A stretch of 64,000 nucleotides of DNA from a virus. The stretch is from IMG/VR virus record IMGVR_UViG_3300044618_000993, positions 2,940-66,939 of that record. The stretch is one strand, 5' to 3'. Both the position numbers and the translations under genes were made by a program. Shown piece by piece: positions 2,244 to 29,800 of this stretch. Position 1 is the first letter of the stretch. Each line of letters begins with the position of its first letter. Below the pieces are notes generated by a model that was not told where the DNA came from, made no database searches, and saw only the letters and a list, made by a program, of their open reading frames with translations.

Positions 2244-2251
2244 TAAATTTG
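2244..2251 (+). promoter_or_regulatory. Bacteroidota -7 promoter element TAAATTTG for the tail operon
   Basis: Matches TAnnTTTG; intergenic, 20 nt before ATG 2271. Confidence 0.65.
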
Positions 2252-2270
2252 TTCCCAATAAACAAATACC

Positions 2271-4472: not shown

Positions 4473-4475
4473 TAA

Positions 4476-5803: not shown

Positions 5804-5808
5804 ACGAA

Positions 5809-10092: not shown

Positions 10093-10953
10093 ATGGATCC
10101 AGTTACAATGATGTTGTTAGCTCAAGCAATCCCAACAGGGTTGCAGCTAGCCAAATCTTATAGTCAGTCTCAACAAGCTAAAGAGTTAGAGAAGGTTGGA
10201 AGACCAAAATATGAGATTCCTGAAGCTGTTGAACAACAAGTTAATCAAGCTAGATACCTAGCTGGCATGAGAGAGCTTCCTGGGCAAAACTTAATGGAAG
10301 CTAAATTGGGTCAAAACACCGCTAAAGGTATTTCTCAATTACAAAATGCTTCAGCTAACTCAGCTGACTTGGCTTCAAACATAGCAAGAATATATGGTGC
10401 CCAAAATGAAGGCGTTCAAAACATAGGATTAAAGGCTGGCCAAAACTGGCTAGGTCAACAAGGCCAACTAAGCAATGCATTGAGAATGTTGGGTCAATAC
10501 CAACAACAACAATGGGATTACAACCAAAAGCAACCATACGAAGAGGCCAAAGCAGCCGAAGCAGCATTAAGAGAAGCTTCTTACAGAAACTTAGCGGCAG
10601 CTTCAACAGGCATTGCAAGCGGAATCAGTGGAGCTGCAAATTTGCAATACCAAGACGATAGATTTAATAAAATGATGGATTTTTATAAGCAAAGTCCAAC
10701 ATATAGTTCAGTGACTGGCACTCAAAATACAACAGCAACTCCTGGGGTAACTGATCTTGGATATACTGATTTAAGAAGCGAAGGTTTTGTTGGGTATCCA
10801 TACGCTAACCCAATGCTACCTTCTTATAATGTTAGTAGAAAAAACTTAATATTTCCTTTAGATTTAAGGGATAGAGGCTATAAAGGGTATCCATATGCCC
10901 ATCCATATGAACCAGTAAGAACCAAGCCAAGCGGCATCTCATTCGTATTTTAA
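10093..10953 (+). CDS. Putative internal virion/ejection protein 1
   Basis: MDPVT-type start with hydrophobic N-terminus, A/Q/G-rich, no Cys; follows the muzzle gene as podovirus ejection genes do. Confidence 0.65.
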   Translation: MDPVTMMLLAQAIPTGLQLAKSYSQSQQAKELEKVGRPKYEIPEAVEQQVNQARYLAGMRELPGQNLMEAKLGQNTAKGISQLQNASANSADLASNIARIYGAQNEGVQNIGLKAGQNWLGQQGQLSNALRMLGQYQQQQWDYNQKQPYEEAKAAEAALREASYRNLAAASTGIASGISGAANLQYQDDRFNKMMDFYKQSPTYSSVTGTQNTTATPGVTDLGYTDLRSEGFVGYPYANPMLPSYNVSRKNLIFPLDLRDRGYKGYPYAHPYEPVRTKPSGISFVF

Positions 10954-10965
10954 TAAATAACAATA

Positions 10966-12525
10966 ATGTTAGACGGTAAAGGTTTAGTATATCAAAAAAG
11001 AGCAGGCACAGGTTCGGCAGTTTACACAGGACCAGCTGCTCAAATAGGAGCAAATCCTTTAGATGCCCTTGCTAATCAAATTAGAGTAGAAGGCAAATAT
11101 AAAGCGGCTGCTGCTGCAAAGCAAAAGGCGGAAGAAGCAAAAACTCTTAATGTTGATTTAACAGGTTGGGATTATGACAACAAAAGATTTTTTTCTGACC
11201 TAGAAAACAAATTAAAGCAAGAGGGAATGGCTTTAAAAATGGCAGGCAAAAGTTTAGATAATTATGCCGATAAAGAAGTATTAGATTGGCACAAAAAAGT
11301 CGATGAAGGTCAAAAAGCAGCATTAGCATCTGTGCATCAAGGCGATATGTATAAGGCGTTTGTTGATATGGTTAATAAAGATCCTGATAAATATGACAAG
11401 GAGCAAAGTATGACCAAAATTGGCACTTATATGCAAATGACCCCTGTAGAAAGATTAAGTGTTGACCCACAATCGTTAGCTGTGTTTAGGTATGATCCAT
11501 ACGGTCCAGTAGAAAAACTTGATATAGATAGATTTGGAAGCAAAGATGAGTGGAAAGGATTAACCAGTGAAGGCTTCAAAGAAACACTTCAAACCAAAAA
11601 GTTAAGAAGTGAAATTAACTCATTAGTTGAAAATCCTGAGAACTTAAAGTTCTATGAGTATAATAAGGATAAATACGGTTGGGAAAACTTAAATGACTAC
11701 AAGGAGTTCTTGTATAAGTATAAGAAAAACCAATTCGTAGCTGACTCTAAATATGGATTAATTAAACCTACCAATACATATGGATGGGGTTTCCAAGACT
11801 ACTACAATAATGTAGCAAATAGCGATGGATTAAATATCAATGTTGCTACAGCTCAACCTAGCGGTAAATCATCACCAACATTAACTCAAAATATATTATT
11901 AGATAAAGCCCAAGGCGTAGCTGGTGTAAACTTAGTAATCCCAGGTGGTGAAGCTAATATTTTAAAGAAAAATGAGTTAGGGGTTGGTGCTGCAAAAAGG
12001 CAAGGCAACTACACAATACAGAATGCTAACTTAGGTATAGCGTTAGTTCAAACCATGGATGGCAAATTACTACCAAGCAATCCTAATGGGATGCCAACTG
12101 GTGAATATTATGACATTAAAGATGCTAAAGGTGTCACTAAAAAGATGACTACTGCTGAAGCGTTTAAACAAGGTTTGGTAAGATACACACCAATAATTCA
12201 AGGTACTGGCAAATTCTTAAATGCATTAGGAATGCCTTTGTTTGATCCTATTGCTGCTCAGGCTGATAAATTTATAACTCCAGATATGGCTCAAAAATCT
12301 GCTGCTGAAAATGATGCATATCAAAAGTTATTAGCGTTGAATCAAGTATCTGATGAATACAACCAAAGAATGTTGCAACAAGCTAATGCAGCCATAGAGA
12401 AAAAACCAGCCGCAACAGAAATTAAAGCTAACACGGGAACTATGTTATATTGGCCAGAGTACAAAGCGGCTAATCCAAAAGCAACAAACGCAGATTATAT
12501 AGCATACAAAAAAACATTTAAATAA
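10966..12525 (+). CDS. Putative internal virion/ejection protein 2
   Basis: 519 aa, helical, no Cys; TAATG coupling to the giant gene. Confidence 0.55.
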   Translation: MLDGKGLVYQKRAGTGSAVYTGPAAQIGANPLDALANQIRVEGKYKAAAAAKQKAEEAKTLNVDLTGWDYDNKRFFSDLENKLKQEGMALKMAGKSLDNYADKEVLDWHKKVDEGQKAALASVHQGDMYKAFVDMVNKDPDKYDKEQSMTKIGTYMQMTPVERLSVDPQSLAVFRYDPYGPVEKLDIDRFGSKDEWKGLTSEGFKETLQTKKLRSEINSLVENPENLKFYEYNKDKYGWENLNDYKEFLYKYKKNQFVADSKYGLIKPTNTYGWGFQDYYNNVANSDGLNINVATAQPSGKSSPTLTQNILLDKAQGVAGVNLVIPGGEANILKKNELGVGAAKRQGNYTIQNANLGIALVQTMDGKLLPSNPNGMPTGEYYDIKDAKGVTKKMTTAEAFKQGLVRYTPIIQGTGKFLNALGMPLFDPIAAQADKFITPDMAQKSAAENDAYQKLLALNQVSDEYNQRMLQQANAAIEKKPAATEIKANTGTMLYWPEYKAANPKATNADYIAYKKTFK

Positions 12526-15500
12526 TGGATAATAAAATAAAAGAAGTATATCAATTTATTCCTCAAGGATACTTTAAAGACGAAGCTCAGTTTGAAAAAT
12601 TTGCTTCTGATCCTAAGAATGCAAAAGATTTATTTGCATTTATTAATGAAGGAACACCTGGGGCATTCAAAGACGAAGCTCAATTATCTAGTTATTTAGA
12701 CTTAAAAAAAAAAGAACCTACTCAATTGGGTTCTGGAGATGGCGAATCAGTTTCTCAATCGAAGTCGTTTGCTGAAAGGTTTGGTGAAGGGTTAGCTAAA
12801 AATAGGCCTATTATGGAAAAGGAATCTACAGTTCCTACTCCAACCAAATTGGGCATCGAAGGGGTTAAACCTGAGCCATTACCAAAAACAGAGCTACCGG
12901 TTAAGGCTAAAATTGAAAAAACAGTTCAACCTGTTACCGAAGAATCAAAGACAAAGTATCTTTGGGAATCTGTCAAAAAAGACGTTGATGCTTCTACAAG
13001 TATTACTACTCAAGAACATTTCAAAAGATTATCTGATGAATTTGCTAATGAGTATTTAGATGAAAGCCAAAAGCAAGAATACAGTTTTGTTAAAAACCTA
13101 AGGGATGCAGATGAGCTAGTTAAGAATTTACAAAAGGTATTAGAAAAGAATCCAAATAAACCAGCTGCTCAATTAAGTTTAAGCAAAGCAATAGCCGCCA
13201 AAGCAGTTCAAGAAACTGAATACACAAAGTATAAAGAGGCTAAGTATAAGCAAATAGACGCTGAAATTAAGGATCTAGAAGAAAAGGTAAACACAAGCCC
13301 ACTCTTCTCATCGTTTTGGGATAATGCTCGTAGAGACGATTACATCAACAAAATAAAAGAACTTAAATCACAAAAGGAAAATTTCTTCTTAGACGAAAAC
13401 GCATTAATTGAGAAAAAATATTCTGAGAACAAGACAGCTTTAGATAAATTTGAAATCCCAGGCAATACGCCTAAACAAAAATTACAAAACTATTATCTAA
13501 CCTTAAACAAGGAAAGAGAAATTGTATTAAATCAAATAGAGCGAAAATACAATGAATTGTCAGGGGATACTCTAGACAACTTAAAAGTTAATTTAACTAA
13601 CGTATTTGGAACTAATGCTGGAGTAGATAATTTCATTAAAACTGTTGACGCTGTATTAGGAACTGACAATGGGTTAACAGATAAACTATCGGCTTTAAAT
13701 GAAAAGATGAAATCTTTGGCCCCTGCGGTATTGATTAATAGAAACCCTATTAAAGATGTCAATGAAGGGTTTGTAGAATCAACTTTAAAAAGCGCTATTC
13801 AAACATTAGTTCCTGCTACTCAAAATTTAATATCCACGCCTAGCAAATTAGCTGAAAATATAAAAGAATCATTGGCATTGTCTAGTTTATCAGATGATTT
13901 ATTATCAAAAACGACTGGCCAAATAGTTACTGAAAAGGCAAAAGGGCCAGAAGGGTTAACTAGAGAATGGTTTGGTAATATAGCCGGTACTGCATTAGGT
14001 ATGAATCCATACTTTTCGGCTGGTACTAGCTTGGTAAAATCAGCCTCTATTGCAATGGATTTTGCAAAAATTAGCAAATATTTAGCTGGAGCAAAATATG
14101 GTAAATACCTTGTTTCTAAACCAGTTATGACTGGCTTGGGATACAAGGTAGCTGGTTACTTAATGCCGTCTAATTCCTTGGTCAAAGATGAAGCAACATT
14201 TTTATCTGGTTTCTTTGGAGGTATTGCTCAAGCAGGTATTGAAAAGGTTATAAATACAAGTTATATCGCTCAAACGTTTAATAAGCTATTTAAAGATCAA
14301 GCCGAATCAATGGCAATAAAAGTAGCTAAAATTGGCGAAAGAGTTGGTATGGGCTTGGGTGAATATGGGGAAGAGGTAGGTAACACCGTTGGAGAAATGA
14401 TTGGTACTTGGGCATCAACTGGAGACTTTAAGAAGTTAAAGGCTGACTTTGAGCAAAATTTTGGTGCTATGGATAAAAACTTAGAGTTATTTGTAGCCTC
14501 ATTTACAATGGGTGCTATCATGAGCTCTGGCAATGCTTTCGGCAAATCAGCTAATGCTAAAAGTAGAGATTACTACAACAACTTATCAGCTAACGATAAA
14601 AAGAAAGCAGATTCATTTGTACAAAGAGTAACTCAAGAAAGATATAATGCAATGGTAGCGGCTAAGAAAGCCGATATACAAGAAACTGGCATCAAGCCAA
14701 CGCCTGTAACGCCAAAAGACTTAGCAGACAAACAAGAGGCAATTGATATTTTAACTAATCCACAAAGCGGTGTAGATGAAAAGAAGGCTGCATTATCTGT
14801 ATTAGCGGATGTTGATTTAAAGATTGAGAACGACAAAATTACTAAGGCTGCTGAGGCAGAATTAAAAGCGGGCAACACATCGACAGAGGTTAAGCCGGAG
14901 GACGCTGTAATGGAGCCAATTCCAAGCGCTGAGGGTACAATAGTAACTAAAGAAGGAACCGTTGAGCCAGCGGTTGCTGAAGTTAAGCCATTAACCGAAG
15001 GTGATCAGGTTCAACTTGAGCCACAAATTAAAGGTGGTATGCCTAGAATCATGGAGTTCAAGGACAATACATGGCAACAAAAGGTAGGTAACGAATACAC
15101 AACAGTATCAAAAGAAGTACAACAAGAAGCACAAAATTTATATGATAGTCAAAACAAGCAAAGGGTATCAGGTGAAGTCGGAGTCGGGCAAGAACCTCTC
15201 CAAACCAAACCTATCGAAGGAGGCCGCCAAGAAGCGCCTAGCACAAGTGGAAATGTTCAAGCATCTGAAGAAGTAACCACACCAACTCTCGTTACCCCTA
15301 AAATAGTAGATAATTTTATCAACACTGGATTTGTAGGTGACGATGTATTAACAAGCATTGCCGAAAAGATTAAAAACAATGAGACCTTAACAAAGGATGA
15401 GAATACAATCTTTAATGGCAAAACATCTGAAATAAATGAAATTTTAATTGACCTTAAAGATCAAGCTGGTACTATTGAGCAAAAGTCTCTAGAGATGGCT

Positions 15501-18500
15501 AACAAAAACGTATCTAAGTTTTTGGAGAAATTAGGCGTTAGTGTAAATTTTGTAAATAGTCAAGAGGAGTTTGAGCAAGCGGCAAAAAATGAAGGCGTAA
15601 AAGCCGAAAAGGGTGCTCAAGGATTTTTCATTGGTGAATCAGGTAAAATATATATTAATAAATCAAACCTTCAAAAATCTTGGGCTAAGACGGTGTTGTA
15701 TCACGAGGCTACGCACCCTATTATTAATATTATTAGGAACACAAACCCGGAAAAATACAAAGCACTTGTTAATGGCTTGCAAGAATTATCTAAGACTAAT
15801 ACTCAAGTAAAAGAAGCATTAGATTGGGTTAAAAAAGAATACGATGGCTCACCAAGCGGCACTATTGAAGATGAAGGTATTGTAGAGGTAATCTCTGGTA
15901 TTGCATCTGGTAAAATACCATTTGGCCAAATTAATCCAACCCTAAGAGAAAGGTTAATTGATTTTATGAATCAAATCCTTAGGGCTTTAGGAAAGAAAGA
16001 AATTACACCTAAGACAGATACAGAGACATTCAAGAAGACTGCTAGAGAAATAGCCTATGCTATGAGAGAAGGTAAGTCTGCGGCTAAGATTGTAGGCAAG
16101 GAAAACGTAAAAGAGTACAAATACAAAGCAGTCTCTAATTTAAGTGGCCAATTTTCTATAACCAAATTTGGTAAATCAGGAATTAAAAAATCACCTGTTT
16201 TAGACAAAGATGAGTATAAGAAAAAACTTGAAAACGGCACATTAAAAATAAGCACTCCACAAGAAGCATTAGGTGACAGTACATTTATGCTTACATTCCC
16301 AGACGATTTATTTGTAGGGGATATCTTTATTGGAAACAATAAGGTTGCTGAGTTTGGTGGCGGTGTTGTTTATGCTATCGTAGAAGGTGAGAAAGGTAGA
16401 ATGTGGGCATCTGTTAGTGAAAAAACAGCCAAAGCATTTGCAGACAATGTAAATAAAAGCTTAAAGATGAACAACGGTACTTCTTATGTTGTATTAGTTA
16501 AAGGTGCTGATACTAAGCACGTATCATCTATGTCAGCAAAAGTAGGGTTCATGAAAACTTTGCTAAGATATGCTGAGAAAAATGAGTCTATGGCCAACGG
16601 TTTATTGACAGCTATTAAAGAAATATATTCTATAGGCAATGTTGCTAAACCAGAATTAGCGATAAAGAGATTTGACAACTATTTAGAAGGCGGTAGAGGT
16701 GAGGATGGCCAAACAATGAAAGAAGCTAAGTCAGCATATGATGGGCTTCGATCGGCGTTAATTAAATACGCAAACCCATTGATTACCAAGATGGCTTTAG
16801 AGATGGGATATGGAAATGAGTATTTTAATGGCACAAAATTAAAAGGTAAAAACCCAGTTTACGAAGCGTCAAATCTAACCGTAGATAAAATGTTTGCTGA
16901 CTTGCTGCAAGAAGATTTCCTTAAAGGCGTACCAGCTGGAGAGGCTTATGCAGTTATTAAAACAAATAGCGAAGTAACTATTAAAAATGATTTGTCTCAC
17001 CCATCATACCCTTGGGTTATATTAACTAAAGACGGATCCCCTGTCGCTCTTGAATTGTTTGACAAAACATTCATGACATTTGGTAAAAATGAAGCAATAA
17101 CAGGTAGATATAGTGAACCAACTGAAGGCCCAACAGGTGGATTTGGTCAAGTTTCATATACTGTACCTAAATTTAAATTAAACCCAAATAAAGAATTAAA
17201 AGGGCCAGGAACTACTGATTTATTAGGTGCCATAAATAAATATAAGGCAGTAACAGAATCAAAACAAACGGCTAAGGCTCAGTTATCTAAAGGCAAAAGA
17301 GAAACTGCTGTAGTAGACGGTGTAGCACAGCGTGTCGCCTCAGTGCCGGATAGTTTAAGCATTGTTGACGGTTTCTATTCACCAATAGAAAAGCGTATCA
17401 CAGAGTTTAAGCAACCTAAAGCGTCAGCCACTAAGTGGAAAGAAATTGTAGGCTCTAAATCTGACGAAGCGGTATTCTCTGGGATAGCTGATTGGTTAAA
17501 CACATTCAAGCCTGATCAACAAATCTCTAAAGAAGAGGTTCAAAACTTTATTAAAAACAATAGAGTTGAGATTAAGCAAGTTATCAAGGCTGATAATTGG
17601 AGAGAGTTCTATGATGAAAGAATGGCTGAGGTAGAAAAGGAAACAGAATACTTTAGGCAAAAAGGATTTAGCGGGTATCAAATAACTAGAACTCCAGACG
17701 AAATGTTTGATAAGCTAAGTGACGCTGATCAAGACAGATTAATTAATTTAAAAGCTGAAAAAGATTTTTTAAATGATGTTTATTATGATTATGGTAACTC
17801 AAGGCAAGTGTTAGCTGGTACCAAAGAAGAGGATATGCCTAAGTACATAAAGTACATCAATAGAGGCGATGCCCAAAACTACAAGGAAATACTTGTAACA
17901 GCTCCTGTTGGCAATAAATTAGAACAAGCTAACGCAATTATTGAAAAACGTTTAGAAGCTATAGACGATGAAATTGAGCAAACTAGAGAATATAAAAAGG
18001 TTGGCGATACTGGAACTGTTAACGATTTTAAATTAGTAGTTAATGACCAAGAAAGGTATGACAGCTTAGTTGCTGAACGCAAGTCTTTAATAGCTCAAGA
18101 GAAAGCAAACACTGAAAAGATTAGAGATTTAAAAAACAAGGAGTACAAATCATCTCATTACAACGAAAAAAACATTATAGTTCACACTAGAACAGATGTT
18201 AGACGTGATTCTGATGACAATAAGGTATTCTTTATTGAAGAGGTTCAATCTGATTGGGGTCAAGAGGGCAAGAGAGAAGGATTTATCGCAGAAAATAAAA
18301 GAGAAGCTCAGCGACAATATGAAATTGACAAAAATAGATATAGTAATATCCAACAAGACATTAAACAAGAAAAGTTTAATCTTGACAAAAACATAGAGCA
18401 AGATGCGGATATTAAAACTATTAAAAAATCTGGCATAGTTGCTTGGTTAGGATTAAAAGAGTTTAATGGTAAAACAGTTTTTACTAAAGATTCTGAAGGG

Positions 18501-19682
18501 GTTACGCCTCCTAAAAAAGAAGATATTATCCCATCAGAAGATTTACCAAAAAATTATGTAGATGCATATAACAGGGTAAAAGAAAGATCTAAAAAACTAG
18601 ATGAGTACATGGCAGAGAAAGATAGGTTGATAGCTAAGTATGGTCTTACGTATAATCCGTACGGTGTAACTTCTCTTACAGCGCCAGAAGGTATTTACGA
18701 AGGTCAAATTACTGAAGGACCGTATGTAACTAATACAAATTCTTGGACTAAATTAGGCTTAAAGATAGCCCTTCAACAAGCTGTTAAAGAAGGTGCTGAT
18801 AAAATTGCTTGGACCACTGGCGAACAACAAAATAAACGTTACGATTTATCTAAACAAGTAGACGCTGTTACCTATGAGAAAAATGATGATGGCACCTACA
18901 ATGTAGACGGCATAAAGAACAATAGATCCGTTTCTTACAAAGAAGATGTTCAAGCCGATCAACTTGAGTCTATGCTTGGCAAGGATGTAGCCGAAAGAAT
19001 CATTAATGATGAGGGCGATACATACTTTGATGGTAAATACATGGGCGGAGTAAAGGTATTAACTGGGGATCAGTTGACCGTTGGCGGCAAAGGAATGACC
19101 GCATTCTATGGTAGCATGGAAACCCCAGGTATACTAGGCAATGTAGCCAAAGCGTTAGTAAAAGAACTAACGGGTGTTGAGCCTAAAATTGAAGGCACGG
19201 AATTAGGTTATACCCCTGTTGAAGAAACTGAACTTATAACCACATTAGATCAATATGACAATGCGCTTAAAAAGGGTGGTATATTTTTTCAAAGAGGTGG
19301 CGAACTTATAACCAAAAAACAAGCATTTGAATTTATTGAAAAGGGCATGAAGATTGGCGTATCTTATCCTAAGGCTGACGTACAACCATCTATTGAAATT
19401 ACCCCAGAATTAAAGGCTGCCGTAGAAAAAGGTATGCCTCAATTCTCTAAAGGTAAAAAATCATCCGCAGCTGAGACTGAAAAAGTATTTAACAAAGCAA
19501 CTGACTTATTTTATAAAATCAAAGGGGCTGAAGGCTCTGCCAAAAGAAAAGCGTTAGCCGATGAGAGAAAAGCATTAATGGATAAAAACCCATCAATTAA
19601 ATTCATCGATGACAACGTTAAAGAGGTTTTAGATCAACTTGAAACAAAAAGAGTAGCAACAAGAAAAGGAAATTGTCCTTAA
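12525..19682 (+). CDS. Giant virion cargo / polyvalent protein with zincin metallopeptidase and C-terminal IEExQSDW domain
   Basis: 2385 aa; G/A-rich hydrophobic segment; QGFF...IYIN...LYHEATH (HExxH at 15702-15716); FYS...W...H-x-R...FIEEVQSDW...AVKEGADKIAW module typical of large polyvalent phage proteins. Confidence 0.75.
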   Translation: MDNKIKEVYQFIPQGYFKDEAQFEKFASDPKNAKDLFAFINEGTPGAFKDEAQLSSYLDLKKKEPTQLGSGDGESVSQSKSFAERFGEGLAKNRPIMEKESTVPTPTKLGIEGVKPEPLPKTELPVKAKIEKTVQPVTEESKTKYLWESVKKDVDASTSITTQEHFKRLSDEFANEYLDESQKQEYSFVKNLRDADELVKNLQKVLEKNPNKPAAQLSLSKAIAAKAVQETEYTKYKEAKYKQIDAEIKDLEEKVNTSPLFSSFWDNARRDDYINKIKELKSQKENFFLDENALIEKKYSENKTALDKFEIPGNTPKQKLQNYYLTLNKEREIVLNQIERKYNELSGDTLDNLKVNLTNVFGTNAGVDNFIKTVDAVLGTDNGLTDKLSALNEKMKSLAPAVLINRNPIKDVNEGFVESTLKSAIQTLVPATQNLISTPSKLAENIKESLALSSLSDDLLSKTTGQIVTEKAKGPEGLTREWFGNIAGTALGMNPYFSAGTSLVKSASIAMDFAKISKYLAGAKYGKYLVSKPVMTGLGYKVAGYLMPSNSLVKDEATFLSGFFGGIAQAGIEKVINTSYIAQTFNKLFKDQAESMAIKVAKIGERVGMGLGEYGEEVGNTVGEMIGTWASTGDFKKLKADFEQNFGAMDKNLELFVASFTMGAIMSSGNAFGKSANAKSRDYYNNLSANDKKKADSFVQRVTQERYNAMVAAKKADIQETGIKPTPVTPKDLADKQEAIDILTNPQSGVDEKKAALSVLADVDLKIENDKITKAAEAELKAGNTSTEVKPEDAVMEPIPSAEGTIVTKEGTVEPAVAEVKPLTEGDQVQLEPQIKGGMPRIMEFKDNTWQQKVGNEYTTVSKEVQQEAQNLYDSQNKQRVSGEVGVGQEPLQTKPIEGGRQEAPSTSGNVQASEEVTTPTLVTPKIVDNFINTGFVGDDVLTSIAEKIKNNETLTKDENTIFNGKTSEINEILIDLKDQAGTIEQKSLEMANKNVSKFLEKLGVSVNFVNSQEEFEQAAKNEGVKAEKGAQGFFIGESGKIYINKSNLQKSWAKTVLYHEATHPIINIIRNTNPEKYKALVNGLQELSKTNTQVKEALDWVKKEYDGSPSGTIEDEGIVEVISGIASGKIPFGQINPTLRERLIDFMNQILRALGKKEITPKTDTETFKKTAREIAYAMREGKSAAKIVGKENVKEYKYKAVSNLSGQFSITKFGKSGIKKSPVLDKDEYKKKLENGTLKISTPQEALGDSTFMLTFPDDLFVGDIFIGNNKVAEFGGGVVYAIVEGEKGRMWASVSEKTAKAFADNVNKSLKMNNGTSYVVLVKGADTKHVSSMSAKVGFMKTLLRYAEKNESMANGLLTAIKEIYSIGNVAKPELAIKRFDNYLEGGRGEDGQTMKEAKSAYDGLRSALIKYANPLITKMALEMGYGNEYFNGTKLKGKNPVYEASNLTVDKMFADLLQEDFLKGVPAGEAYAVIKTNSEVTIKNDLSHPSYPWVILTKDGSPVALELFDKTFMTFGKNEAITGRYSEPTEGPTGGFGQVSYTVPKFKLNPNKELKGPGTTDLLGAINKYKAVTESKQTAKAQLSKGKRETAVVDGVAQRVASVPDSLSIVDGFYSPIEKRITEFKQPKASATKWKEIVGSKSDEAVFSGIADWLNTFKPDQQISKEEVQNFIKNNRVEIKQVIKADNWREFYDERMAEVEKETEYFRQKGFSGYQITRTPDEMFDKLSDADQDRLINLKAEKDFLNDVYYDYGNSRQVLAGTKEEDMPKYIKYINRGDAQNYKEILVTAPVGNKLEQANAIIEKRLEAIDDEIEQTREYKKVGDTGTVNDFKLVVNDQERYDSLVAERKSLIAQEKANTEKIRDLKNKEYKSSHYNEKNIIVHTRTDVRRDSDDNKVFFIEEVQSDWGQEGKREGFIAENKREAQRQYEIDKNRYSNIQQDIKQEKFNLDKNIEQDADIKTIKKSGIVAWLGLKEFNGKTVFTKDSEGVTPPKKEDIIPSEDLPKNYVDAYNRVKERSKKLDEYMAEKDRLIAKYGLTYNPYGVTSLTAPEGIYEGQITEGPYVTNTNSWTKLGLKIALQQAVKEGADKIAWTTGEQQNKRYDLSKQVDAVTYEKNDDGTYNVDGIKNNRSVSYKEDVQADQLESMLGKDVAERIINDEGDTYFDGKYMGGVKVLTGDQLTVGGKGMTAFYGSMETPGILGNVAKALVKELTGVEPKIEGTELGYTPVEETELITTLDQYDNALKKGGIFFQRGGELITKKQAFEFIEKGMKIGVSYPKADVQPSIEITPELKAAVEKGMPQFSKGKKSSAAETEKVFNKATDLFYKIKGAEGSAKRKALADERKALMDKNPSIKFIDDNVKEVLDQLETKRVATRKGNCP
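15142..15276 (+). CDS. Nested 44-aa basic protein in the +1 frame of the giant gene
   Basis: ATG 15142 to TAA 15276 encodes MIVKTSKGYQVKSESGKNLSKPNLSKEAAKKRLAQVEMFKHLKK; AT-rich upstream; the host frame here is a low-complexity linker. Confidence 0.7.
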   Translation: MIVKTSKGYQVKSESGKNLSKPNLSKEAAKKRLAQVEMFKHLKK

Positions 19683-19687
19683 ATTTG
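19680..19687 (+). promoter_or_regulatory. -7 element TAAATTTG overlapping the giant-gene stop, 4 nt before the ferritin ATG
   Basis: TAnnTTTG-N4-ATG, same geometry as at 29793, 36066 and 54060. Confidence 0.55.
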
Positions 19688-19691
19688 TGCT

Positions 19692-20186
19692 ATGTTAAAA
19701 CCAAAAGTACTACCTCAGGAAATAGTAGACTTATTATTACCTAGGTTAAAGGATGAATTTAATGCTTACTACCTATATAGAGCAGCATCAAACTGGTGCC
19801 AAAACGTAGGTTTCTTTAAGGCTGCCGAGTTCTTTGCCGCTGAGTCTACTGACGAGTTAGCACACGCCAAGTTGTTAGAAAACTATCTAATAGATTGGAA
19901 CGTAACTCCAGAGTTGCCTACAATTGGTGAACCTAAGCTTGAGTTCTCAAGTTTAATTGACGTTATCGAGTCAGCCTACAAGGTTGAGTATGTATTATAC
20001 GAAGAGTACGAAGACACTTCAGCTAAGGCATTAAAGCTTGGCGACGTTTGTACCTTTAACTTTCTAGCCCAATTCAATGATTTTCAGCGCAAAGCAGTTG
20101 CTGAGTATTCAGATAAATTAAATATGTTAGAAGGTGTTTCTGGTAGTAAGTTTGAACTTTTATTGCTAGAGAAAAAACTATTCTAA
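19692..20186 (+). CDS. Ferritin-like protein
   Basis: DEFNAYYLY, FF...ESTDELAHA (E-x-x-H), AYKVE, D...FNFL...Q...E pattern of non-heme ferritins; 164 aa. Confidence 0.88.
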   Translation: MLKPKVLPQEIVDLLLPRLKDEFNAYYLYRAASNWCQNVGFFKAAEFFAAESTDELAHAKLLENYLIDWNVTPELPTIGEPKLEFSSLIDVIESAYKVEYVLYEEYEDTSAKALKLGDVCTFNFLAQFNDFQRKAVAEYSDKLNMLEGVSGSKFELLLLEKKLF

Positions 20187-20189
20187 TAT

Positions 20190-23100
20190 ATGGCAGGACC
20201 ATGCATCATATCATATAAGGGTAAGGACTACTCTTATGAAGAGTTTGCAACAATGCTGCATGACGGCTTGTTGGCTCAATTGGTAGACGACAATGTAATC
20301 ACAGGCATAGAAGCTGAACAGTTATCAAGAGGTGGCAGAGGTGAATACAAGCCTAGAAAATTACCTATAAGGGTTATAGAAGAGTTTCCAGAATTAGGTG
20401 AAATAATGACCGATGACGGAACATTAAATTATAGGGTAATACCAAACTCAATCACCTTAGAAGAGGCAAATGGTGTCATAAATTATTTAGGGGAAGATTT
20501 AGCTTTAAAAGAAATCAAAAACATGGACAATGGTATGTCCTGGAGGGTTAGGTTTACCGTTGGTCAGGTTTTGGCTAAAAGATTTAGAGAGTCTGGTGAG
20601 CTTGACAAGATGGTTGATGCTGTTGACGAGGTTAGCACTAAGGCCACTGAACTAGGTCAAGGCATACAAGCTTTGGCAATGTTTTCATTATTGACCCCAG
20701 AAGGATCGATAAGATACGCTGTTAAGCAAACCAAGGAAAAGATTAAAAAGCTAAGAGGCAAGAGAGAAAGTAAGTTTCAGAAAACTACAGACGATCTAAA
20801 GAAGGTTAATAAAGAAGTAGCCAAAGAGGTTACCAAAAACCTTGATAAAATCATTAACAAATCACAAGAGATCAAGCCTACTGAGACCACAGATACTCCA
20901 GAATATGGTGCTCAGAATAAGATTGTAACCAAAGAAAGATACAAAGACTTAAAGAAGGCCATAAAGGGCAAGTTCTTTTCTAACTTACCACCAGAATTGT
21001 TTGAGATTGCTGCCTATCACTTAGAGGCGTCTGGTAGACAGTTTTCTGGTTTTGCTAAGAAAATGATTAGAGACTTTGGAAACAAAGTTAAACCTCATTT
21101 AAAAACCTTATACGACAAGGCTAAAGCTAATCTATCAAAAGAATATAATGACTTTGAAGCAACCGAACAGGTTGATCAAGACTTTAGCACTATTGTAGGC
21201 AAAGAGGTTAAGAAATCAATATCAGCAGCTGGCGTTGATCTTAAAGAAATAATAGAAAGCCACTACACTAAATATGAAGCGGCTAAACGTTCGTTAACTG
21301 AAAAATTTATTCAAGACGCTGGATTAACAGCTAGCGAAGCTCAAGACTTGGCTAAAGTAGTTCAAGCTGAGTTTGATAAATTGGCTACAGAACGTAAGCA
21401 AAAGATTGTTGATAAATTGTTTACAACAAAAGAAAAGATTGCAGATAGAAAGAAGAAGCGTACAACAGAGGAAGAAATAGTTAGACTTAGCAACCTGGGT
21501 GTATTCACAAACGAAGAACTTATTAAGAAGTTTGGTGAAAAGATGGGTTGGCCAAGCATAACTAAGGAACAAATAAAAGAGATAGAAAAACTAGCTCAAA
21601 GAGTTCAAGACGCTCCAGAAGGATTAAAGAGGTTTAAGGCAGTAGAAGATCTAATGTCTTATCAAGCTAACATGAAAGGTGATAGTTTGATGGACGTGTC
21701 ATTAGCTGTATACTATGCTAATATCCTTAGCGGACCTTTGACTCACATTGTGAACATAGTAGCTAACATGGCAAGAGCCATCTTAGAATTTACTATAGTT
21801 GCTGCTCAAAATCCAAAGAACTCAAGACTAATAGTTAACGCATACCTAAACGGTATATCTCGTGGATTGCTAGAAGGTATTGCTACACTACAGACTGGTT
21901 ACTCGCCAATAAGAGGAAAGGTTGAGGTTCCAAACGTATTAGAAAGAACTCAATTTTGGGGTGGCTATAAAAACCCTGCAAACTGGTTAAAGTTTGTTAG
22001 ACGTGCTATGGTTGCTGCGGACGTTGTGTTCTTTGAAGGCGCTAAGGAAATGAGAATGTATCAGCAAGCAATTAAGTTTGCTAAGGATAATGATATCGAG
22101 CCAGGTAAATCAGCTAAAGAAAGAGCTGCCTATGTATTAGGTATCAATAATGATTTAGTATCTGATGCTCAAGCTCAAGCTCAAATAGAGTATGAGGCTG
22201 AAGTGGAAAGAATTAACAGTTCAAAAGAAAGCGATGTTAAGAAAAAAGCAATGATCGCTTCGGCTAAATTAGATGCCAAAAGACGTGTGTATGAGATAAT
22301 CGAGTCAGAGTATCCTGCAAATTCTCTTGCTGGAGCTCAGTCATATGCCGCAAGAACTACATACAACTATCCACCAGAAGGCTTACTAGGTGTTGCGGCT
22401 AATGCAATTAACTCGGCTACAACCACTGTCCCTGTGTTAAAGCTATTTGTTCCGTTCACAAATATTATTGCTAATATCATGAACGAGACAATTAACTACA
22501 CTCCTTGGGGTTTTGCTAGAGCGGCCGCAGACGGTTCAGTTACTGGTCTTAAATTAAAAAATGCTACCAGAAAGGATTGGGATGCATTATCAGAAGAACA
22601 AAAGAAACAAGAAAAGGTTGACTTAGTTTACAAAGCATTAATAGGCACGACTTTAATGGCTGCCGTATATATGCTTAGCAATATAAAAGATGATGACGAT
22701 GAGCCTATACTTAAGATAACAGCTGGAGGCACAGGAAACTATGCTAAAAACCAAGCGTTAAAAGCTCGCGGATATCAAGAGTATTCTATAAAGGTAGGTG
22801 ACAAGTGGATTTCATATAAAGAAACTCCGCTATTCATTCCTTTTGCTATTATAGGAACAATAAACGACTACGACGAGTACAACAAAAAGAGCCTAGAAGA
22901 TCCAGAAATGCAGTCTAAGGTTTCTGTTATTGTTAATCAGTTGAAGGATGTTATGTTTAATGCTACAGCTATTGCTGGTATGAACACATTCCTTAAATTA
23001 GTTACAGAGTCAAACAACGAAACGATGGGATCCAAGCTACAGACAGCTACAGCTAACTTAGCTAAAGGATTTGTTGTTCCGAACTTATATACACAAACAG

Positions 23101-23546
23101 CTAGAGAGATAGAGTCTGTCATGGGAATACCTATGAAAGAAACAAAGGGAACATTCTTTGGCCCTATGTTAGCTGATATTCCTTTTGCTAGAGATCAATA
23201 CTTTAACAAGGTGAATGTATTCGGTGAAGAGGTTATTCCAGACACCGATAGATTTGTATCTACGGCTGAGGATGACAAGTTAATCGACCTGTTTATAAAA
23301 CAAAAATACTACCCTGTAGTTCCATCAATCAAGTCACAAAAGGTCATAGACTCTGAGACCAACAAAGAAAGACTGATGACTCAAGAGGAATACTATAAAT
23401 ACGCCAAGAAAAGAGGCGAAACAATGAAAGAGTTTATGCTTGATATGTACGACACCTTGAATGATCAAGATCCTGCTATCTTTGCAAAAATTATGAACAA
23501 AATTGTTTCAGCATCTAATACCATGGGCAAACTAGAAATAAAATGA
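20190..23546 (+). CDS. Large internal virion/ejection protein (C-terminal part of polyvalent cargo)
   Basis: [36 protein letters not shown] and NVFGE motifs typical of podovirus large ejection proteins. Confidence 0.7.
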
Positions 23547-26500
23547 TTAGATTAAATACACCAGACGAATCACTAAGAATAACCACGATATACGCACAGA
23601 AAGTGACGTACACGGTGGTGTATACCTATAACTTTAGGGGCGTTCAATACAGCAACTCAACTGTTGGTACAATTACCACAGCTGGCAACACTGATATTGT
23701 GTTAAACGATACGCCTGCATCTTGGACAGACATTACCGACATTACAATCGTAAACGAGGGTACTGCGGCTAACACAGTTCAAATGTCAAAGGTATCTAAT
23801 GGTTCGGTTCAAATCTTTTCATCTAGTGTAACATTAGACATCGGAGAGACCTTACAATATAACGACCAAGGCTTTAGAAGATTTAACGCAGCAGGTGAGT
23901 TCATGACAGTCGGTGCAACAGGTGCCCAAGGACCAACAGGCCCAACAGGCCCAGTCGGAGCCACTGGAGCTACAGGACCAACTGGGGCTAACGGAACAAA
24001 CGGAGCAACTGGTCCAACAGGTCCAACAGGCGCAACAGGCCCTGCTGGCGTTGGAGGTGCCCTTGGTTATTGGGGTTCATTTTGGGACACCACTGATCAA
24101 ACAGCAACTCTTCCAAACACTCCATATGAAATAAAATTAAACAATACAGACCCTGACTCTAGTGGTATTAGTGTTGTATCTAATAGTAGAGTAACATTTG
24201 GATTTTCAGGCGTATACAGCTTGACATTTTCTATTCAGTTTAGAAATAGTGATACACAGATACACGACGTAAACGTGTGGTTGAGAAAGAATGATAGTGG
24301 AAGCACTGGTGATATGCCAGACAGCGACACTAAGTTATCTGTAACCGCAAGACATGGCGGTGTTGACGGCTTCCAATTGATGACCGTTAACTTTGTTTAC
24401 AAATTAGTTGCTGGCGACTTCATTGAAATGATATGGTCAACAACAAGTACTCAAGTTACAATTGACTCATCACCAGCTGGCACCACACCTATAAGCCCAT
24501 CTATCCCAGGCGTAATCTTTACAGCAACTCAAGTTATGTATACTCAAGTCGGCCCAACTGGTGCGACTGGTATTCAAGGCCCAACAGGCCCGACTGGATG
24601 GACTGGACCTCAAGGCATCCAAGGACCAACTGGACCGACTGGTTGGACTGGCCCTGCTGCAAGTTTAATAGTAGGCACAACATCTATAACAAGTGGCTCT
24701 ACTAACCGTATCTTATTTGAAGGCACAGGCAATGTGTTGCAAGAGAGCTCAAATCTTGTTTGGGATCAAACCAATAGCAGATTGGGTGTGGGTACAACTA
24801 GCCCATCATCAAAGTTACACATTAGTAGTGTTGCTGATGCGGCCAAGGGTCTAATAATGAATGCTACTACAGGCACATTAAATATTTATCCTTACTACAA
24901 TAGCTCATACGGTGTTATATTAGAGTCAAGAAACTCTACAGATACAGGTTATTTAGGCTTTACAATTAGTGGAAGTAAAATATTCTTAACTGATGGTAAC
25001 GTAAATATCAACACTGGTGGTACTGATGTAGGCGCAAAATTAACTGTTAAAGGTAGTGGTTCAACTAGTGCTACAACATCATTTAACGTACAAAATAACT
25101 TAGGTGTTACTAAAATATCTGCCAACGACGACTCGACTACATTAAACTTGCTAAGTGGGGTTAATGGTGGTAGTGCTGCTCAATTAACGCTAGGTCCAAT
25201 AGCAACTGGTACTCTATACATAGAAGCACAAGTAAATGGCGGAGGTAACGGTCATAGAATATATACAGATAGACAGAACACTAATATGTTCTTTGGTTGC
25301 GTGTCTGCAACTACACCTACGAATAATAATATAACGATTGGTAACTCAACTACAGCAACAGGCGCTACTCATAATATTTTATTTAGACAATCCAATGCGG
25401 TTGTAGGTGGTTTTCCTAATAGCGCAAACGTAACTTATCCATCAGCACAATTTTTTATTGAGTCAACGACTAGAGGTTTTTTAAAACCAAGAATGACAAC
25501 TGCTCAAAGAGATGCTATTGTAACTCCTGCTGCTGGTCTAAGCATTTACAACACCACAACTAATACACAAGATTATTACAACGGTACTTCGTGGGTTCAG
25601 TTACAACCTACAATCACAAGTCCTATAACTGGATCTGGTACTGCCAATTATGTTCCTAAATTTACAGGGACTAGCTCTATTGGAGACTCTTTGATTTATG
25701 ATAACGGAACTAACGTAGGTATAGGAACAACAAGTGCAACAAATGGAAAATTAGTAGTTAAAAACAACACATTTCAATTTATAGCAGAGCCAACAGATGC
25801 AACAACTTATGGCTATCTTGGAATTGGTCAATTTACAAATGGTGCATTTATAGGAACTATAGCAGGTACTAATACTGCTTCTGACTTGTTAAGATTAGGA
25901 ACAAGTGGAACTGAACGTATGCGTATTACCTCATCAGGTGACGTTGGTATAGGAACAACTAGTCCAAGTGCTAAATTAAATGTGTCAGGTGATATTCACA
26001 TTGGTGATTATGGTAGTGCTGTTGCAAGAATTTTAGATTTTAGGACAAGTAATTCTTTATTTACTATTACAACAGACGGCACATCGGGGGCATTAGGAAC
26101 TACAATTTCTTATAGTTGGGCAAATGGAGGACAAGGTGATTTGAAATTTAATAATGCAGGTGGAGAGGTAATGAGATTGTCTTCAACAGGTAACGTAGGT
26201 ATAAACACAACTACACCTTCACTTGCAAAACTACACGTAAAAGGACAAGACGGAAGTGCAATTGCTTATTTATATAATAATACAGGAACAGCAGGTCAAG
26301 TAAATGGATTGGCAGTTGAAGCAGGAACAAACACAAGTGATTATGCTTTATCTATCGGTTCATCAGCAGGAACGTCTTATTTAAGAGTAAGAGGTGATGG
26401 TAATATAGGCATAGGAACAACTAGTCCTGCTTATCCACTACAAGTAAACGGTTTAATATCTTCAAATAGGACATCAAACACAGATGGCGGCATTGTATTC

Positions 26501-29476
26501 GGTAGTCCTGCAAGTGGCAATTATATCTACGGTGCAGATCTGGGTAGTTACATTGCAACATATACATCTAACTCTGAGCGTATGCGTATTGGCTCAACAG
26601 GTAATTTGCTTATAGGTACTACTACCGATTCAGGCTATAAGCTAGATGTTAATGGCAACTTAAGAGTGGCAAGTTCTATTTTTGGCCCAGGAACTGCTAA
26701 TACTTATTATCAAATAGCAAATAGTGACTACAATCATAGATTCTTTACACGAACAGATGTTGGAGCAACCTTAGAACGTTTTACTATTGAAGGAGGTGCT
26801 GTAGCTGGAAAAGCTTACTTCCAAAACACTAACGTAGGTATTGGTACAACTTCACCAACTGCATTATTACATGTTAACGGAAATGCTGTTGTTGGTGCTG
26901 ATGATTTAAATATAGCAACTCAAAGAATAACAATATCCAACAATACATTAACAAATTCAAGGGGATTGTCATTTTCTGTTTTAGATGGTTCACAAAATCC
27001 GAGGGCTTGGATTAAACACGTCACTGCAAGTGGTAGTCAGAGAATGGATTTTGAGTCTACCTATTCAACCAGTTCAACTCTTGCAAATTGGTGTTTTGTA
27101 AGTGGTAACGTTGGTATAGGCACAACAAGCCCTGCTAGAAAATTGCAAGTTAATGGTGACGCTGAATTAGTTAGCGGTAATTTTTATCTTTCAAACAATT
27201 ATGGTATAATTTCTAAAACAAGTACAGGAACTGCCAAAGATGTATTCTATGTTGATTCCTCTAATAATGTTATTTTTGGCGCAACAGCAGGTGGTTGGAA
27301 TAGCATTCAATTTAGGAATGGTGCAACTGCACAAATGTACATCAATTCATCTGGAAATGTTGGCATTGGCACTACAAGCCCTGCTGGTAAATTGGATGTA
27401 AATGGCGATTTGTTTTCAAGAAGCGTAATATTTGGATACGCTGGAGCAGGTAACCAATATGGCGGATTAACATGGACTAGCACGGATAGCGGTAACTTAT
27501 TTTTAAAGTCAGCAAACATTACAAAAGTATTATTAGACTCTAATGGTGTTTCATATGTTAATAGCGGCAATTTATTAATAGGCACAACAACCGATGCAGG
27601 CGCTAAATTATATGTTAAAGGAAGTGGCTCTACTAGTGCAACCACTTCACTATTAGTGCAAAACAGTAGTGGTGCTGATGCATTTAAAATTACTGATGAT
27701 AAAAATGCTAATTTATTAGGAAGACTTTCAGTAGGATCAACATTGAACTCAAGCATTTGGGCTACTTATAATAGTATTTTACAAGTAGGACAATTATATA
27801 TGTTTGATTATTCACCTACACCGCAAGCAGGTCTTGTGAATAATCAATATTTTGATGGTACTAACTCAAGATATTTTAGAACTGCAGGCGCATCTGGCAT
27901 ACAATTTACAAATGATGGTTCAATTCAATTAGATACATATGTAAGCGGAACGGCAGGCACAGTTTTACCAACAGGAAAATCTTTTTATTTTAACTCATCG
28001 GGCAATATGGGGGTAGGGTTTTCAACGCCTACTGCACGATTACAAGTAAGAGGTAGCGGTGCAACATCTGCAACCACAGCGTTTTTGGTTCAAGATAGTG
28101 CAGGGTTAAATGCATTTTATGTAAGGGATGATAGATTTGCGTGGTTCTCTAAAGAAATTACTGTTGGTGGTAGTTCATCAGCAAGTATAACTATGGGCAC
28201 TGGGGGTTCAAATAACCCATACATTAATGCTTTTGGTAACGGGCTAGAATTAACAACATCAAATTCATATGGCGCAAATTCAAATATTCAGTTTAGACCA
28301 ACAACAAATTGGAGTGTAGTAAGCACAACAACTGGTACGGGTGTTTTTGCGATAAATACTAATGGTAATAATGAGAGATTAAGGGTAAATCAAACAGGCA
28401 ATTTGTTGATAGGCACCACCACTGATGCTGGCTCTAGATTGTTTATTAAAGGTTCTGGAACCACTTCATCTACATCTACATTTTTAATTCAAAACAGTGC
28501 AGGTACACAAGCTCTAAAAGTATTTGATGATACAACATCCATATTTGGAGATAGTACAACAACGGTTAACAACCTAAGCACATTCTATGGCTCAATAGAT
28601 GTAAAAGGCTCATCAGCCACAGGGGCTATTATTAATATGTCTTCTGCTAGTAACTCTGCAATAACATATGCAGGTGGATCAGCCTTGTATATTAAGAGTG
28701 GCTTGCCTAACTTAATATTTCAAACCAATGGCGCAAACGAAAGAATGCGTATTGATACTAACGGAAACGTAGGTATAGGTACTATAACTACAACAAATGC
28801 AAAATTAGAAGTATTTGTTGGCGCAGGAACTACTAGTGGATTAAGAATAAAAGCTTATTCAGATGCAAGTACTGCCTACTTATTGAGCGCAGGCACCGAG
28901 AGTTACCAAGACAACTTTAAGATCAAAATGATCAATGGAAATGTCACTATGGGGACTCAATTAAATGGTTACACATTTGGCTTATATACATTCAATGGCA
29001 CTGCACTAACGGTGGCTAACTCTGGCAATATCCTAATAGGAACTACAACTGACGCAGGGTATAAGTTAGAGGTGTCTGGCGGAACTTCTAAATTTCAAAG
29101 CATTATTGCTGATGGTAATATTATATTTAACGCTCCTTATTGGTTACAGTGGGCAGGTTCTAACGTAATGATTGCGGACGGGACTGATACTAAAATAAGA
29201 ACTAGTGGCGGTGGTATTACACAGTTTATAACATCTGGCTTCCAAAATCAATTAATATTAACGTCTGATAAACAAGCAGGTGTAAACACAAGTGCTGTTG
29301 ATCCTTCTGCTCAACTACAAGTAGACTCCACAACTAGAGGTTTCTTGCCTCCTAGAATGCTTGAGTCAGATAGATTAGCAATTGCAACCCCAGCTTTAGG
29401 TCTTATGGTTTATCAAACAGACATGACTGAAGGCTTGTACATATACAAATCAGCAGGATGGGTATTCGTAATATAA
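23543..29476 (+). CDS. Long tail fibre with collagen-like segments and GNVGIGTT repeats
   Basis: G-x-T triplet runs near 23910-24060 and 24550-24655; more than 10 G-N-[VL]-[GL]-I-G-T-T repeats; two STTRGFLxPRM modules. Confidence 0.85.
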
Positions 29477-29766: not shown

Positions 29767-29792
29767 TATTTTGCACAATTAAATTTTTATAC

Positions 29793-29800
29793 TACATTTG
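29793..29800 (+). promoter_or_regulatory. -7 element TACATTTG with TTTG -33 element at 29770-29773
   Basis: Both Bacteroidota promoter elements present; 4 nt before ATG 29805. Confidence 0.65.

Follow-up and report, generated by a model that had tools for sequence, protein, structure and literature searches.

How do short-tailed phages stow several huge proteins and then send each down a narrow tail at its proper turn? This open question is raised in concrete form by a stretch of viral DNA (IMG/VR record IMGVR_UViG_3300044618_000993, positions 2,940 to 66,939) in which a ferritin gene separates the genes for two proteins of 2385 and 1118 amino acids (aa), each with a single cysteine at the end that faces the other. 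The stretch of 64,000 nt, here called the window, makes up most of a 66.9-kb virus record estimated to be 96% complete. We propose that each gene encodes half of a single giant protein, mosaic in make-up and almost free of cysteine. A short-tailed phage of crAss-like type probably carries this protein in its particle for ejection into the host, and the two pieces are probably relinked tip to tip through their terminal cysteines.

Two single-cysteine proteins on either side of a ferritin gene

The 2385-aa protein (the upstream piece, or giant) has its sole cysteine at the penultimate residue, 2384 (...RKGNCP), the 1118-aa downstream piece has its own at residue 5 (MAGPC), and the two proteins encoded before the giant, of 286 and 519 aa, have none, all as the original prediction had noted. 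The other 15 open reading frames (ORFs) listed for the window contain 55 cysteines in 6837 aa (0.8%), a rate at which about 35 would be expected in these four proteins (4308 aa); 2 are observed. Each of the two cysteines lies in a short terminal module bounded by the motif Q[FL]S[KR]G. These modules had been put at ~80 and ~45 aa; the bounding motifs are indeed there, and the modules measure 75 aa (the tail of the giant) and 43 aa (the head of the downstream piece), close to the sizes claimed. Matches of hidden Markov models (HMMs) of the tail are C-ends of relatives, and those of the head are N-ends. Translated in all six frames, the window has four copies of the motif itself; the three that fall in real frames are all within the two proteins, from whose composition 0.009 occurrences would be expected. 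The internal copy, QLSKG at residue 1586 of the giant (AQLSKGKRE), lies far from the termini and could be a domain end, a processing site or the scar of an earlier insert.

Terminal cysteines are conserved and co-occur with ferritin

A search with residues 2080-2385 of the giant returned 566 relatives of 1300-4200 aa, and the cysteine statistics that follow come from the 120 listed. These proteins have 57 cysteines in 352,181 residues, and 44 of the 57 fall in the first 10 or the last 9 residues, which account for 0.65% of the total. Seventy of the proteins have no cysteine, 23 have it at the C-end only, 15 at the N-end only, 2 (P0097 and P0153) at both ends, and 10 internally. The C-terminal tips read ..GNCP, ..EACP, ..DGCP, ..KVEC and ..DKKC, and the N-terminal tips MAVPC.., MANPC.., MAC.. 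and MAGC... Among 43 homologues of the 1118-aa protein, the sole cysteine lies in the first 10 residues in 25, 15 have none, and 3 have one internal cysteine whose setting is unrelated; in P0023, for instance, it belongs to the catalytic Pro-Cys of a cytosine methylase fused to the protein. The invariance of Cys5 in our alignment A1 is partly a selection effect, because A1 holds 22 of the 43 homologues, picked from the best 29, and omits P0001, P0011, P0013, P0014, P0022-P0024 and P0028, several of which have no N-terminal cysteine; the unbiased count is 25 of 43. Positional statistics show the terminal cysteines to be conserved in relatives, and the loci described next show them to co-occur.

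The company kept by the cysteines was read from viral loci. Single-sequence queries of viral contigs, with the 1118-aa protein or with a 130-aa piece of the fused protein P0075 described below, gave no loci; a profile of the downstream protein gave 49, and a profile of ten cassette ferritins gave 78. Eighteen of the 49 loci have a homologue with an N-terminal cysteine, one of them without upstream DNA. In all 17 that can be read, the upstream giant ends in cysteine (..GNCP, ..DGCP, ..ENCP, ..EDCSW, ..QDCL, ..IDCP) and a ferritin gene is present, so that ferritin co-occurrence, which had been suggested as a check, came out as foreseen. The 31 loci without an N-terminal cysteine (29 proteins with no cysteine, 2 with one internal) include none with ferritin (0/31); there the homologous region lies within one ORF of up to 4329 aa or, in about six, is cut by a contig end.

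Seen from the ferritin, 77 newly fetched loci of the 78 were analysed. The trio of Cys-ended giant, ferritin and N-terminal-Cys protein is present in 38 (28 distinct ferritin sequences), with ferritin directly after the giant in 38/38, and it persists down to ~30% ferritin identity with quite unlike tips (..KINCD/MTCTY, ..RINCK/MAETCTY, ..FIIKC/MATCQY). Two further loci have no downstream DNA, one has the partners further off, and three have no C-terminal-Cys upstream ORF together with too little downstream DNA to judge. The remaining 33 ferritins stand in other phage settings, including contigs of 100-430 kb; in these large contigs (L089-L103) related ferritins of ~40% identity have no Cys-tipped neighbors and lie beside a conserved ORF of 176-189 aa.

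The gap between the pieces can also be occupied by other genes, as by ORFs of 408 aa in L004 and 445 aa in L084; L019 and L110 each have several ORFs there. In L004 (positions 3-8864) the giant is split further, and the 408-aa ORF has two close cysteines (42 and 45). L110 (1219-18019) presents a chain of a 1504-aa protein (..KCCKGK), four unrelated ORFs, a 211-aa protein with cysteines at residues 7 and 210, ferritin and a 2398-aa protein (MAC..); the two-ended 211-aa protein has the look of an adaptor. In L061 the ferritin is followed by small Cys-rich ORFs.

Natural fusions define the insert

Relatives in which both pieces form one chain show what was inserted. P0096 (2014 aa, no cysteine) aligns with residues 2771-2826 of the giant of locus L008 (62% identity) and then directly with residues 45-1242 of the L008 downstream protein (77%). 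What is missing from it is precisely the final 74 aa of the L008 giant, the ferritin gene and the opening 44 aa of the downstream protein, and this defines the insert as a unit. A fused homologue without both modules had been suggested as a check, and this Cys-free protein is one. Fusions of a second kind retain the modules. P0075 (2913 aa, no cysteine), the only such protein when the module HMMs were run over all sequences fetched, has tail and head internal and contiguous (..QKGIITKDKD-KVTYNGVNYSSDEF.., the junction reading ..GIITKDKD-KVTYNG..). When 1.84 billion representatives were searched exhaustively by HMMER, the 130-aa fused piece of P0075 matched 45 proteins. Two of these are fused and Cys-free, the P0075 cluster and P0165 (2813 aa, no cysteine), in which tail and head are again contiguous (..GLISSDGK-KVVYEG..). 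Twenty-six have the tail at the very C-end and 26/26 end ..CP, 14 have the head at the very N-end and 14/14 have Cys5, and three (P0166, P0187, P0205) are odd or spurious. Among the 26, four (P0200, P0202, P0206, P0208) also begin with a Cys-tipped head, and the mini-proteins P0206 (139 aa) and P0200 (186 aa) consist of Cys-tipped head and tail only, possibly as free linkers or remnants. Across the proteins of this search, both cysteines are lost where a peptide bond joins the modules and present where the chain is cut. Single-chain relatives such as P0096 and contiguous-module relatives such as P0075 and P0165 agree with the original prediction that an ancestral protein was split and rejoins at its termini.

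These proteins also bear on the reading that the two terminal cysteines serve unrelated purposes, such as acylation of the N-terminus and attachment of the C-terminus to another virion part, their facing positions being a by-product of shared descent. L004 and L061, which have an N-terminal cysteine with no identified upstream C-terminal partner, speak for it. Against it, both cysteines vanish together in three natural fusions, mid-chain proteins carry both (P0097, P0153, P0200, P0202, P0206, P0208 and the 211-aa protein of L110), and the model described below places both tips side by side; we regard unrelated purposes as very improbable.

Hundreds of giants share a domain whose conserved end is QFSKG (..ITPELKA.V..G.PQFSKG), and in the window and in L052 the insert begins right after this motif. 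The downstream edge repeats the motif, as QLSRGGRG in the window; in L052, QFSKGGRD stands at one edge and QFSRAGGRD at the other. Such a repeat seems to be an insertion site that was duplicated. The L008 insert is ~55 aa further on and has no edge repeat. Among the 120 listed relatives of the giant, a Cys-tipped head precedes the conserved domain in 15 and a Cys-tipped tail follows it in 23; the module pair therefore marks different cut sites, which fits a portable insert or mosaic shuffling. A bolder reading, which we hold as doubtful, is that the insert is a self-contained cut-and-relink kit of two Cys-tipped docking halves plus a ferritin that makes or guards the disulfide. In such a kit the ferritin would supply a local oxidant in the assembling particle, or would keep iron from the lone thiols, and any giant ejected protein could be cut anew yet travel as one thread. 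The module pair is also found in small two-ended proteins of 139-211 aa.

Predicted structure of the docking pieces

The fold of the joined modules was modeled with AlphaFold2 from alignment A7, whose 20 rows comprise two fused pieces together with tails and heads. The tails were entered without their last three residues and the heads from one residue past the cysteine, and the fold says nothing on the cysteines themselves because A7 left them out. For the fused piece the mean predicted local distance difference test (pLDDT) score is 79.5 and the predicted template modeling (pTM) score 0.58. The model has helices at 6-31, 37-52, 54-72 and 92-109 and strands at 76-79 (ITKD), 82-85 (KVTY) and 88-91. 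Helices one to three and strand 76-79 belong to the tail; the head supplies strand 82-85, which completes the hairpin, as well as strand 88-91 and the last helix. The split point falls in the two-residue turn (KD) between strands 76-79 and 82-85. By this fold the two cysteines would flank the site of the missing turn, as they must if a disulfide is to take its place. A Foldseek search of the PDB with the docking-domain model found nothing at E ≤0.001, the best match (E 0.25, the RecA C-terminal region) not being meaningful.

To an interface between the window's own tail and head, which the original prediction had expected, a complex prediction fed with custom alignments A3 (tail) and A4 (head) gave weak support. 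The interaction prediction score from aligned errors (ipSAE) was 0.52 in 3/3 runs, against 0.02 for the top-scoring one of three controls; at least 81% of contacts agree between runs, and partner pLDDT is at least 64. The mark used in calibration was reached by 58/80 solved complexes and 2/110 mismatched pairs, counts that hold only roughly for custom alignments. With support from the models, we consider it likely that tail and head dock.

Known systems with a similar logic

The proposed end-to-end disulfide chemistry has been seen once, in the unrelated-looking podophage A4. In this cyanopodophage the C-terminal helix of gp27 inserts into gp26, and a Cys1715-Cys5 disulfide, seen by cryo-electron microscopy, stabilizes the arrangement (PNAS 2025, PMC12002296). 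Phage A4 is Anabaena phage A-4L (KF356198), in which gp27 (1717 aa) has its sole cysteine at 1715 (..NPCQF), gp26 (1114 aa) has its sole cysteine at residue 5 (MSKHC..), and the two genes adjoin with a 5-nt gap and no ferritin between them. The likeness to the window is close: the only cysteine of the upstream giant lies near the C-end (1715/1717 there, 2384/2385 here), the only cysteine of the next protein (1114 aa there, 1118 aa here) is residue 5, an element at the C-end of the first protein docks into its neighbor (here by prediction), and a Q/N-rich ejection protein encoded upstream has no cysteine (gp29 in A-4L). Cys-free Q/N/G-rich proteins of 286-380 aa, compared by eye, open both ejection blocks (10093-10953 in the window; A-4L gp29, L128:28510-29652). 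The differences are that phage A4 uses a long C-terminal helix that enters a cleft, whereas a small helix-plus-sheet domain is predicted to be shared between the chains here, and that the available text of PMC12002296 reports one bond in one phage and not a rule. In the literature searched, only this single bond is described, and we found no account of a general rule, a conserved module pair or a ferritin insert.

The second precedent concerns the split itself. In Aeromonas phage Aeh1 the gene for NrdA is split by mobE, and insertion-derived C- and N-terminal tails reassemble the product; splicing is involved neither at the RNA nor at the protein level (Crona et al. 2010, PMC3045599). There as here a free-standing gene cuts a gene, and the tails are absent from unsplit homologues (here P0096). 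Unlike Aeh1, the inserted gene here encodes ferritin and not a homing endonuclease, and the tails are a widespread conserved module pair, each with one cysteine and found at various cut sites, and the link that we propose for them is covalent. In view of the A4 disulfide and of published split genes rejoined by insertion-derived tails, the label of a new system, under which the arrangement was originally put forward, is too strong.

A third comparison is with the "fractured genes" that contain split inteins, found mainly in phage metagenomes (2009, PMC2677866), whose three-part layout (one half extended at its C-end, then a free-standing gene, then the other half extended at its N-end) is the layout seen here. 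A split intein, or alternatively a splicing or read-through device, would yield one continuous polypeptide, and read-through could appeal to the fact that in the window the giant, ferritin and downstream ORFs share one frame with lone TAA codons between them (19680-19682 and 20184-20186). Neither protein has a Pfam match to a Hint or intein family (E ≤0.01), and the modeled fold of three helices and a three-stranded sheet is not Hint. The cysteines sit at the outer tips and not at the body-module boundaries (QFSKG/KKSS and QLSRG/GRGE), where splicing needs nucleophiles (Cys, Ser or Thr). With no Hint domain or fold and with the cysteines so placed, protein splicing cannot remove the modules. 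A one-frame polyprotein was likewise rejected, as the frame is not kept in relatives, whose paired gaps are -10/-1, -10/-8, 6/-1 and 9/-4 nt; the shared frame looks accidental because relatives show overlaps and other frames. We give a continuous spliced or read-through product next to no credence.

The handling of cargo proteins is best described for crAss001, whose cargo (gp45, gp46, gp47, gp49 and gp50) is proposed to reside in capsid and tail until it is extruded in a partly unfolded state, with an ejection order likely set by packing and mutual interactions; its tail is held by intersubunit disulfides (Bayfield et al. 2023, PMC10172136). The word "cysteine" does not occur in the main text of that paper, which does not mention terminal cysteine links between cargo proteins. 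The gene order of the window, with a muzzle-like protein, two smaller proteins and giants ahead of tail fibers, resembles that of Crassvirales. The genome differs in being of 67 kb and not ~100 kb, in a giant with no RNA polymerase likeness by sequence and in a muzzle match below the cut-off.

A model for relinking the split giant

The data presented above, which show the split, the edges of the insert, the conserved and co-occurring cysteines and their loss in fusions, have led us to propose the following model. An insert of ~0.9 kb split the gene of the giant; it gave the upstream half its tail of 75 aa, brought in the ferritin gene, and gave the downstream half its head of 43 aa. These two additions would dock as one small domain in which the last strand of the upstream piece pairs with the first strand of the downstream piece, and the cysteine at each tip would sit where the fused relative has its two-residue hairpin turn. 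In an oxidizing medium the two thiols could form a disulfide in the particle, giving one unbranched chain that would be stored and threaded out in a fixed order, and the link would be released by reduction in the cytoplasm of the next host. Both proteins are probably located in the virion and would be ejected in order. The conserved, co-occurring terminal cysteines and the bond between a C-terminal cysteine and Cys5 in phage A4 make it rather probable, by analogy, that a covalent tip-to-tip disulfide relinks the split giant.

The main rival is non-covalent docking alone, in which the cysteines would be kept for local reasons, as a hairpin cap or, with the neighboring Pro, for resistance to exopeptidases. 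The modules are conserved well beyond the cysteines and model as one domain, the tails of Aeh1 NrdA rejoin a split enzyme without any covalent bond (PMC3045599), and assembly takes place in a reducing environment. Set against this, cysteine is purged elsewhere (the 57 in 352,181 residues among the 120 relatives listed of 566), yet the tips have it in 26/26 and 14/14 proteins, and it is lost exactly when a peptide bond takes over. A specific capping motif is argued against by tips that vary freely (CP, CD, CK, CSW, CL or a terminal C). Docking without the bond is therefore an explanation that we think unlikely, though it ranks ahead of the other competitors.

Several points weigh against the disulfide model. 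The disulfide is carried over by analogy from cyanophage A4, and the virion location of both proteins is itself deduced: the "internal virion protein" match of the 1118-aa protein is partial, and the match of crAss_MUZ_C (PF25729) to the protein at 6567-10037 scores 22.7 bits, under the Pfam cut-off of 27. No sequence likeness to phage A4 is found, either by hhalign of A1 against gp26 (probability 0.8%, E 0.068) or by the module HMMs against gp25-gp29 of that phage (E >0.2), and phage A4 is for this reason an analogue and not a shown relative. The host cytoplasm, where assembly occurs, is reducing, so that the bond could form only after packaging or release. By the calibration of the tool itself, the complex prediction counts as "weak support", as scores at the mark and up to 0.60 were given by only 7 of the 80 solved complexes and by both mismatches. 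The contrast of 17/17 with 0/31 loci does not represent independent events because the loci are relatives, and only about three separate changes of state can be pointed to (the deep split, P0096, and P0075/P0165). About six of the 31 loci start less than 200 nt from a contig end, and some of their proteins counted as without cysteine may be truncated calls. Two loci are exceptions: in L061 (4084-9634) ferritin follows a 1675-aa protein with Cys7 and no C-terminal cysteine, and in L004 a 1338-aa piece starts MAC.. and the pieces before it have no C-terminal cysteine.

The ferritin of the insert

The gene between the two pieces does encode a ferritin, matching PF00210 over residues 15-147 (E 2.8e-22, 79.6 bits against a cut-off of 24.5), and is separated from the giant by 9 nt and from the downstream gene by 3 nt. 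The ligands of a ferroxidase center (Glu, Tyr, Glu-x-x-His, Glu, Gln) are present in it, with a spacing that we take to equal that of E. coli FtnA. The residues E22, Y29, E51, E55, H58, E99 and Q132 are invariant in ten cassette ferritins of 22-74% identity. Because ferroxidase-type residues are invariant down to 22% identity, the cassette ferritin appears to be kept as a working ferritin, and on its residues the insert ferritin is an active-looking ferroxidase. Its own cysteines are not conserved among the ten.

An intact ferroxidase site beside Cys-tipped proteins, in 38/77 ferritin loci and 17/17 split loci, could be taken to mean that the thiolates bind a metal ion, for instance iron from the ferritin, in a bridge whose center several pairs might share. 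No other conserved ligand (His, Cys or Asp) stands beside either cysteine in alignments A3 and A4, the density in phage A4 was built as a disulfide (PMC12002296), and the ferritin's own cysteines, not being conserved, give the idea no help. Cys-tipped junctions with no ferritin also exist, at gp27/gp26 of phage A4 and at the first junction of L110; a metal bridge is thus improbable, and ferritin is not generally required for the bond. The ferritin might supply oxidant, guard the thiols against iron, be cargo itself, or be a passenger of the insert.

An own promoter for the ferritin gene, claimed at the outset, was not recovered. A sigma-70 scan gave 4 sites against 4.2 expected, none before 19692. 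The two-box pattern TTTG-N17-21-TAnnTTTG, which we take to be the Bacteroidota promoter type, has nine matches in the window (for example 29770-29800, 45070-45100 and 50796-50828) against 3.4 expected, a number reached by 0/100 shuffles, and none of the nine lies before the ferritin gene. Read directly, the region upstream of ferritin has only a lone TAAATTTG, which overlaps the stop codon of the giant. The excess of two-box matches hints at a Bacteroidota host.

The gene block and its giant protein

The features are collected in Table 1. On the plus strand, virion structural genes are followed by the genes for the muzzle-like protein, the 286-aa and 519-aa proteins, the giant, ferritin, the 1118-aa protein and the tail fiber. 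By gene order, the 286-aa and 519-aa proteins are probable internal virion proteins, the first of them an ejection protein; a search of Pfam and PHROG found no family on either. The tail fiber gene starts at 23543, overlapping the stop codon of the 1118-aa gene, and its product has collagen-like G-x-T/G-P-T repeats near residues 120-170 and 335-380 and two cysteines in all.

Table 1. Genes, modules, motifs and cysteine codons of the window (positions in nt).
Feature	Position	Strand	Basis
Muzzle-like protein	6567-10037	+	phrog_14478 "virion structural protein", E 1e-75
286-aa Q/N-rich protein, 0 Cys, first gene after muzzle-like protein	10093-10953	+	gene order
519-aa protein, 0 Cys	10966-12525	+	gene order
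2385-aa giant mosaic protein, upstream piece, one Cys (residue 2384)	12525-19682	+	ORF, Cys count
Internal QLSKG motif, residues 1586-1590 of giant	17280-17294	+	
QFSKG, residues 2306-2310 of giant; end of widespread domain, upstream edge of insert	19440-19454	+	ending common to relatives
C-terminal docking module (predicted), 75 aa: three helices, last beta-strand, Cys-Pro end	19455-19679	+	alignment A3, HMM, AlphaFold2 model of natural fusion
Codon of Cys2384, only Cys of giant	19674-19676	+	
Ferritin gene, 164 aa, inside insert	19692-20186	+	PF00210
Downstream piece, 1118 aa, one Cys (residue 5)	20190-23546	+	ORF, Cys count
N-terminal docking module (predicted), 43 aa: Cys5, beta-hairpin, helix	20190-20318	+	alignment A4, HMM, AlphaFold2 model
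Codon of Cys5, only Cys of downstream piece	20202-20204	+	
QLSRG, residues 44-48 of 1118-aa protein; downstream edge of insert, possibly duplicate of upstream QFSKG	20319-20333	+	
Tail fiber, 1977 aa, collagen repeats	23543-29476	+	
Terminase and portal genes	58602-63286		

No Pfam family is found at E ≤0.01 on the 2385-aa or the 1118-aa protein. The latter has weak PHROG matches to "internal virion protein" (1.4e-8) and "DarB-like antirestriction" (2e-15). In 50,697 phage records, tblastn with the 1118-aa protein gave partial matches only (at most 52% coverage and 38% identity), annotated PLxRFG or DarB-like and with A-4L not listed among them. Since neither blastn of 19000-21000 against the same records nor tblastn of the ferritin, made in search of cultured relatives, gave a match, there is no close cultured relative at hand. 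A protein atlas search with residues 1850-2310 of the giant returned only unnamed viral clusters, with scores of at most 0.86.

Iyer, Burroughs, Anand and Aravind are said to have described, in 2017, polyvalent proteins of phages and conjugative elements, giant mosaics that are reportedly delivered with the DNA; to our knowledge, neither Cys-tipped junctions nor a ferritin insert was described there. Two observations bear on whether the 2385-aa protein is of this kind. Precomputed Pfam matches on many of its relatives (PF18760, PF18762, PF18763, PF18838 and PF18857) are of PolyVal type, the families being, as we take it, ART-PolyVal, Kinase-PolyVal and LPD. The giant also has a HExxH motif of zincin type (HEATH at residue 1060; 15702-15716) with no Pfam match there, which may mark a metallopeptidase domain of the kind seen in polyvalent proteins. 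The window's own giant has no Pfam match (E ≤0.01). A two-barrel virion RNA polymerase was considered for the giant and is not supported by sequence: neither the 2385-aa nor the 1118-aa protein has a PDB match (E ≤1), the only D.D.D match in the giant is DADQD in a charged stretch, and no Pfam family is found.

Implications for the ejection of giant proteins

That an intact ferritin so regularly accompanies the pieces may be a sign of iron or redox chemistry in virion assembly. A compact docking pair that restores a cut protein, and for which nature provides Cys-free fused controls, would be of interest for protein engineering. For the phages themselves, a tether of this kind would make the giants one unbranched thread, which would explain why cysteine has been purged elsewhere in them, and an end-to-end tether conserved in this way would offer a concrete and testable answer to how their ejection is ordered.

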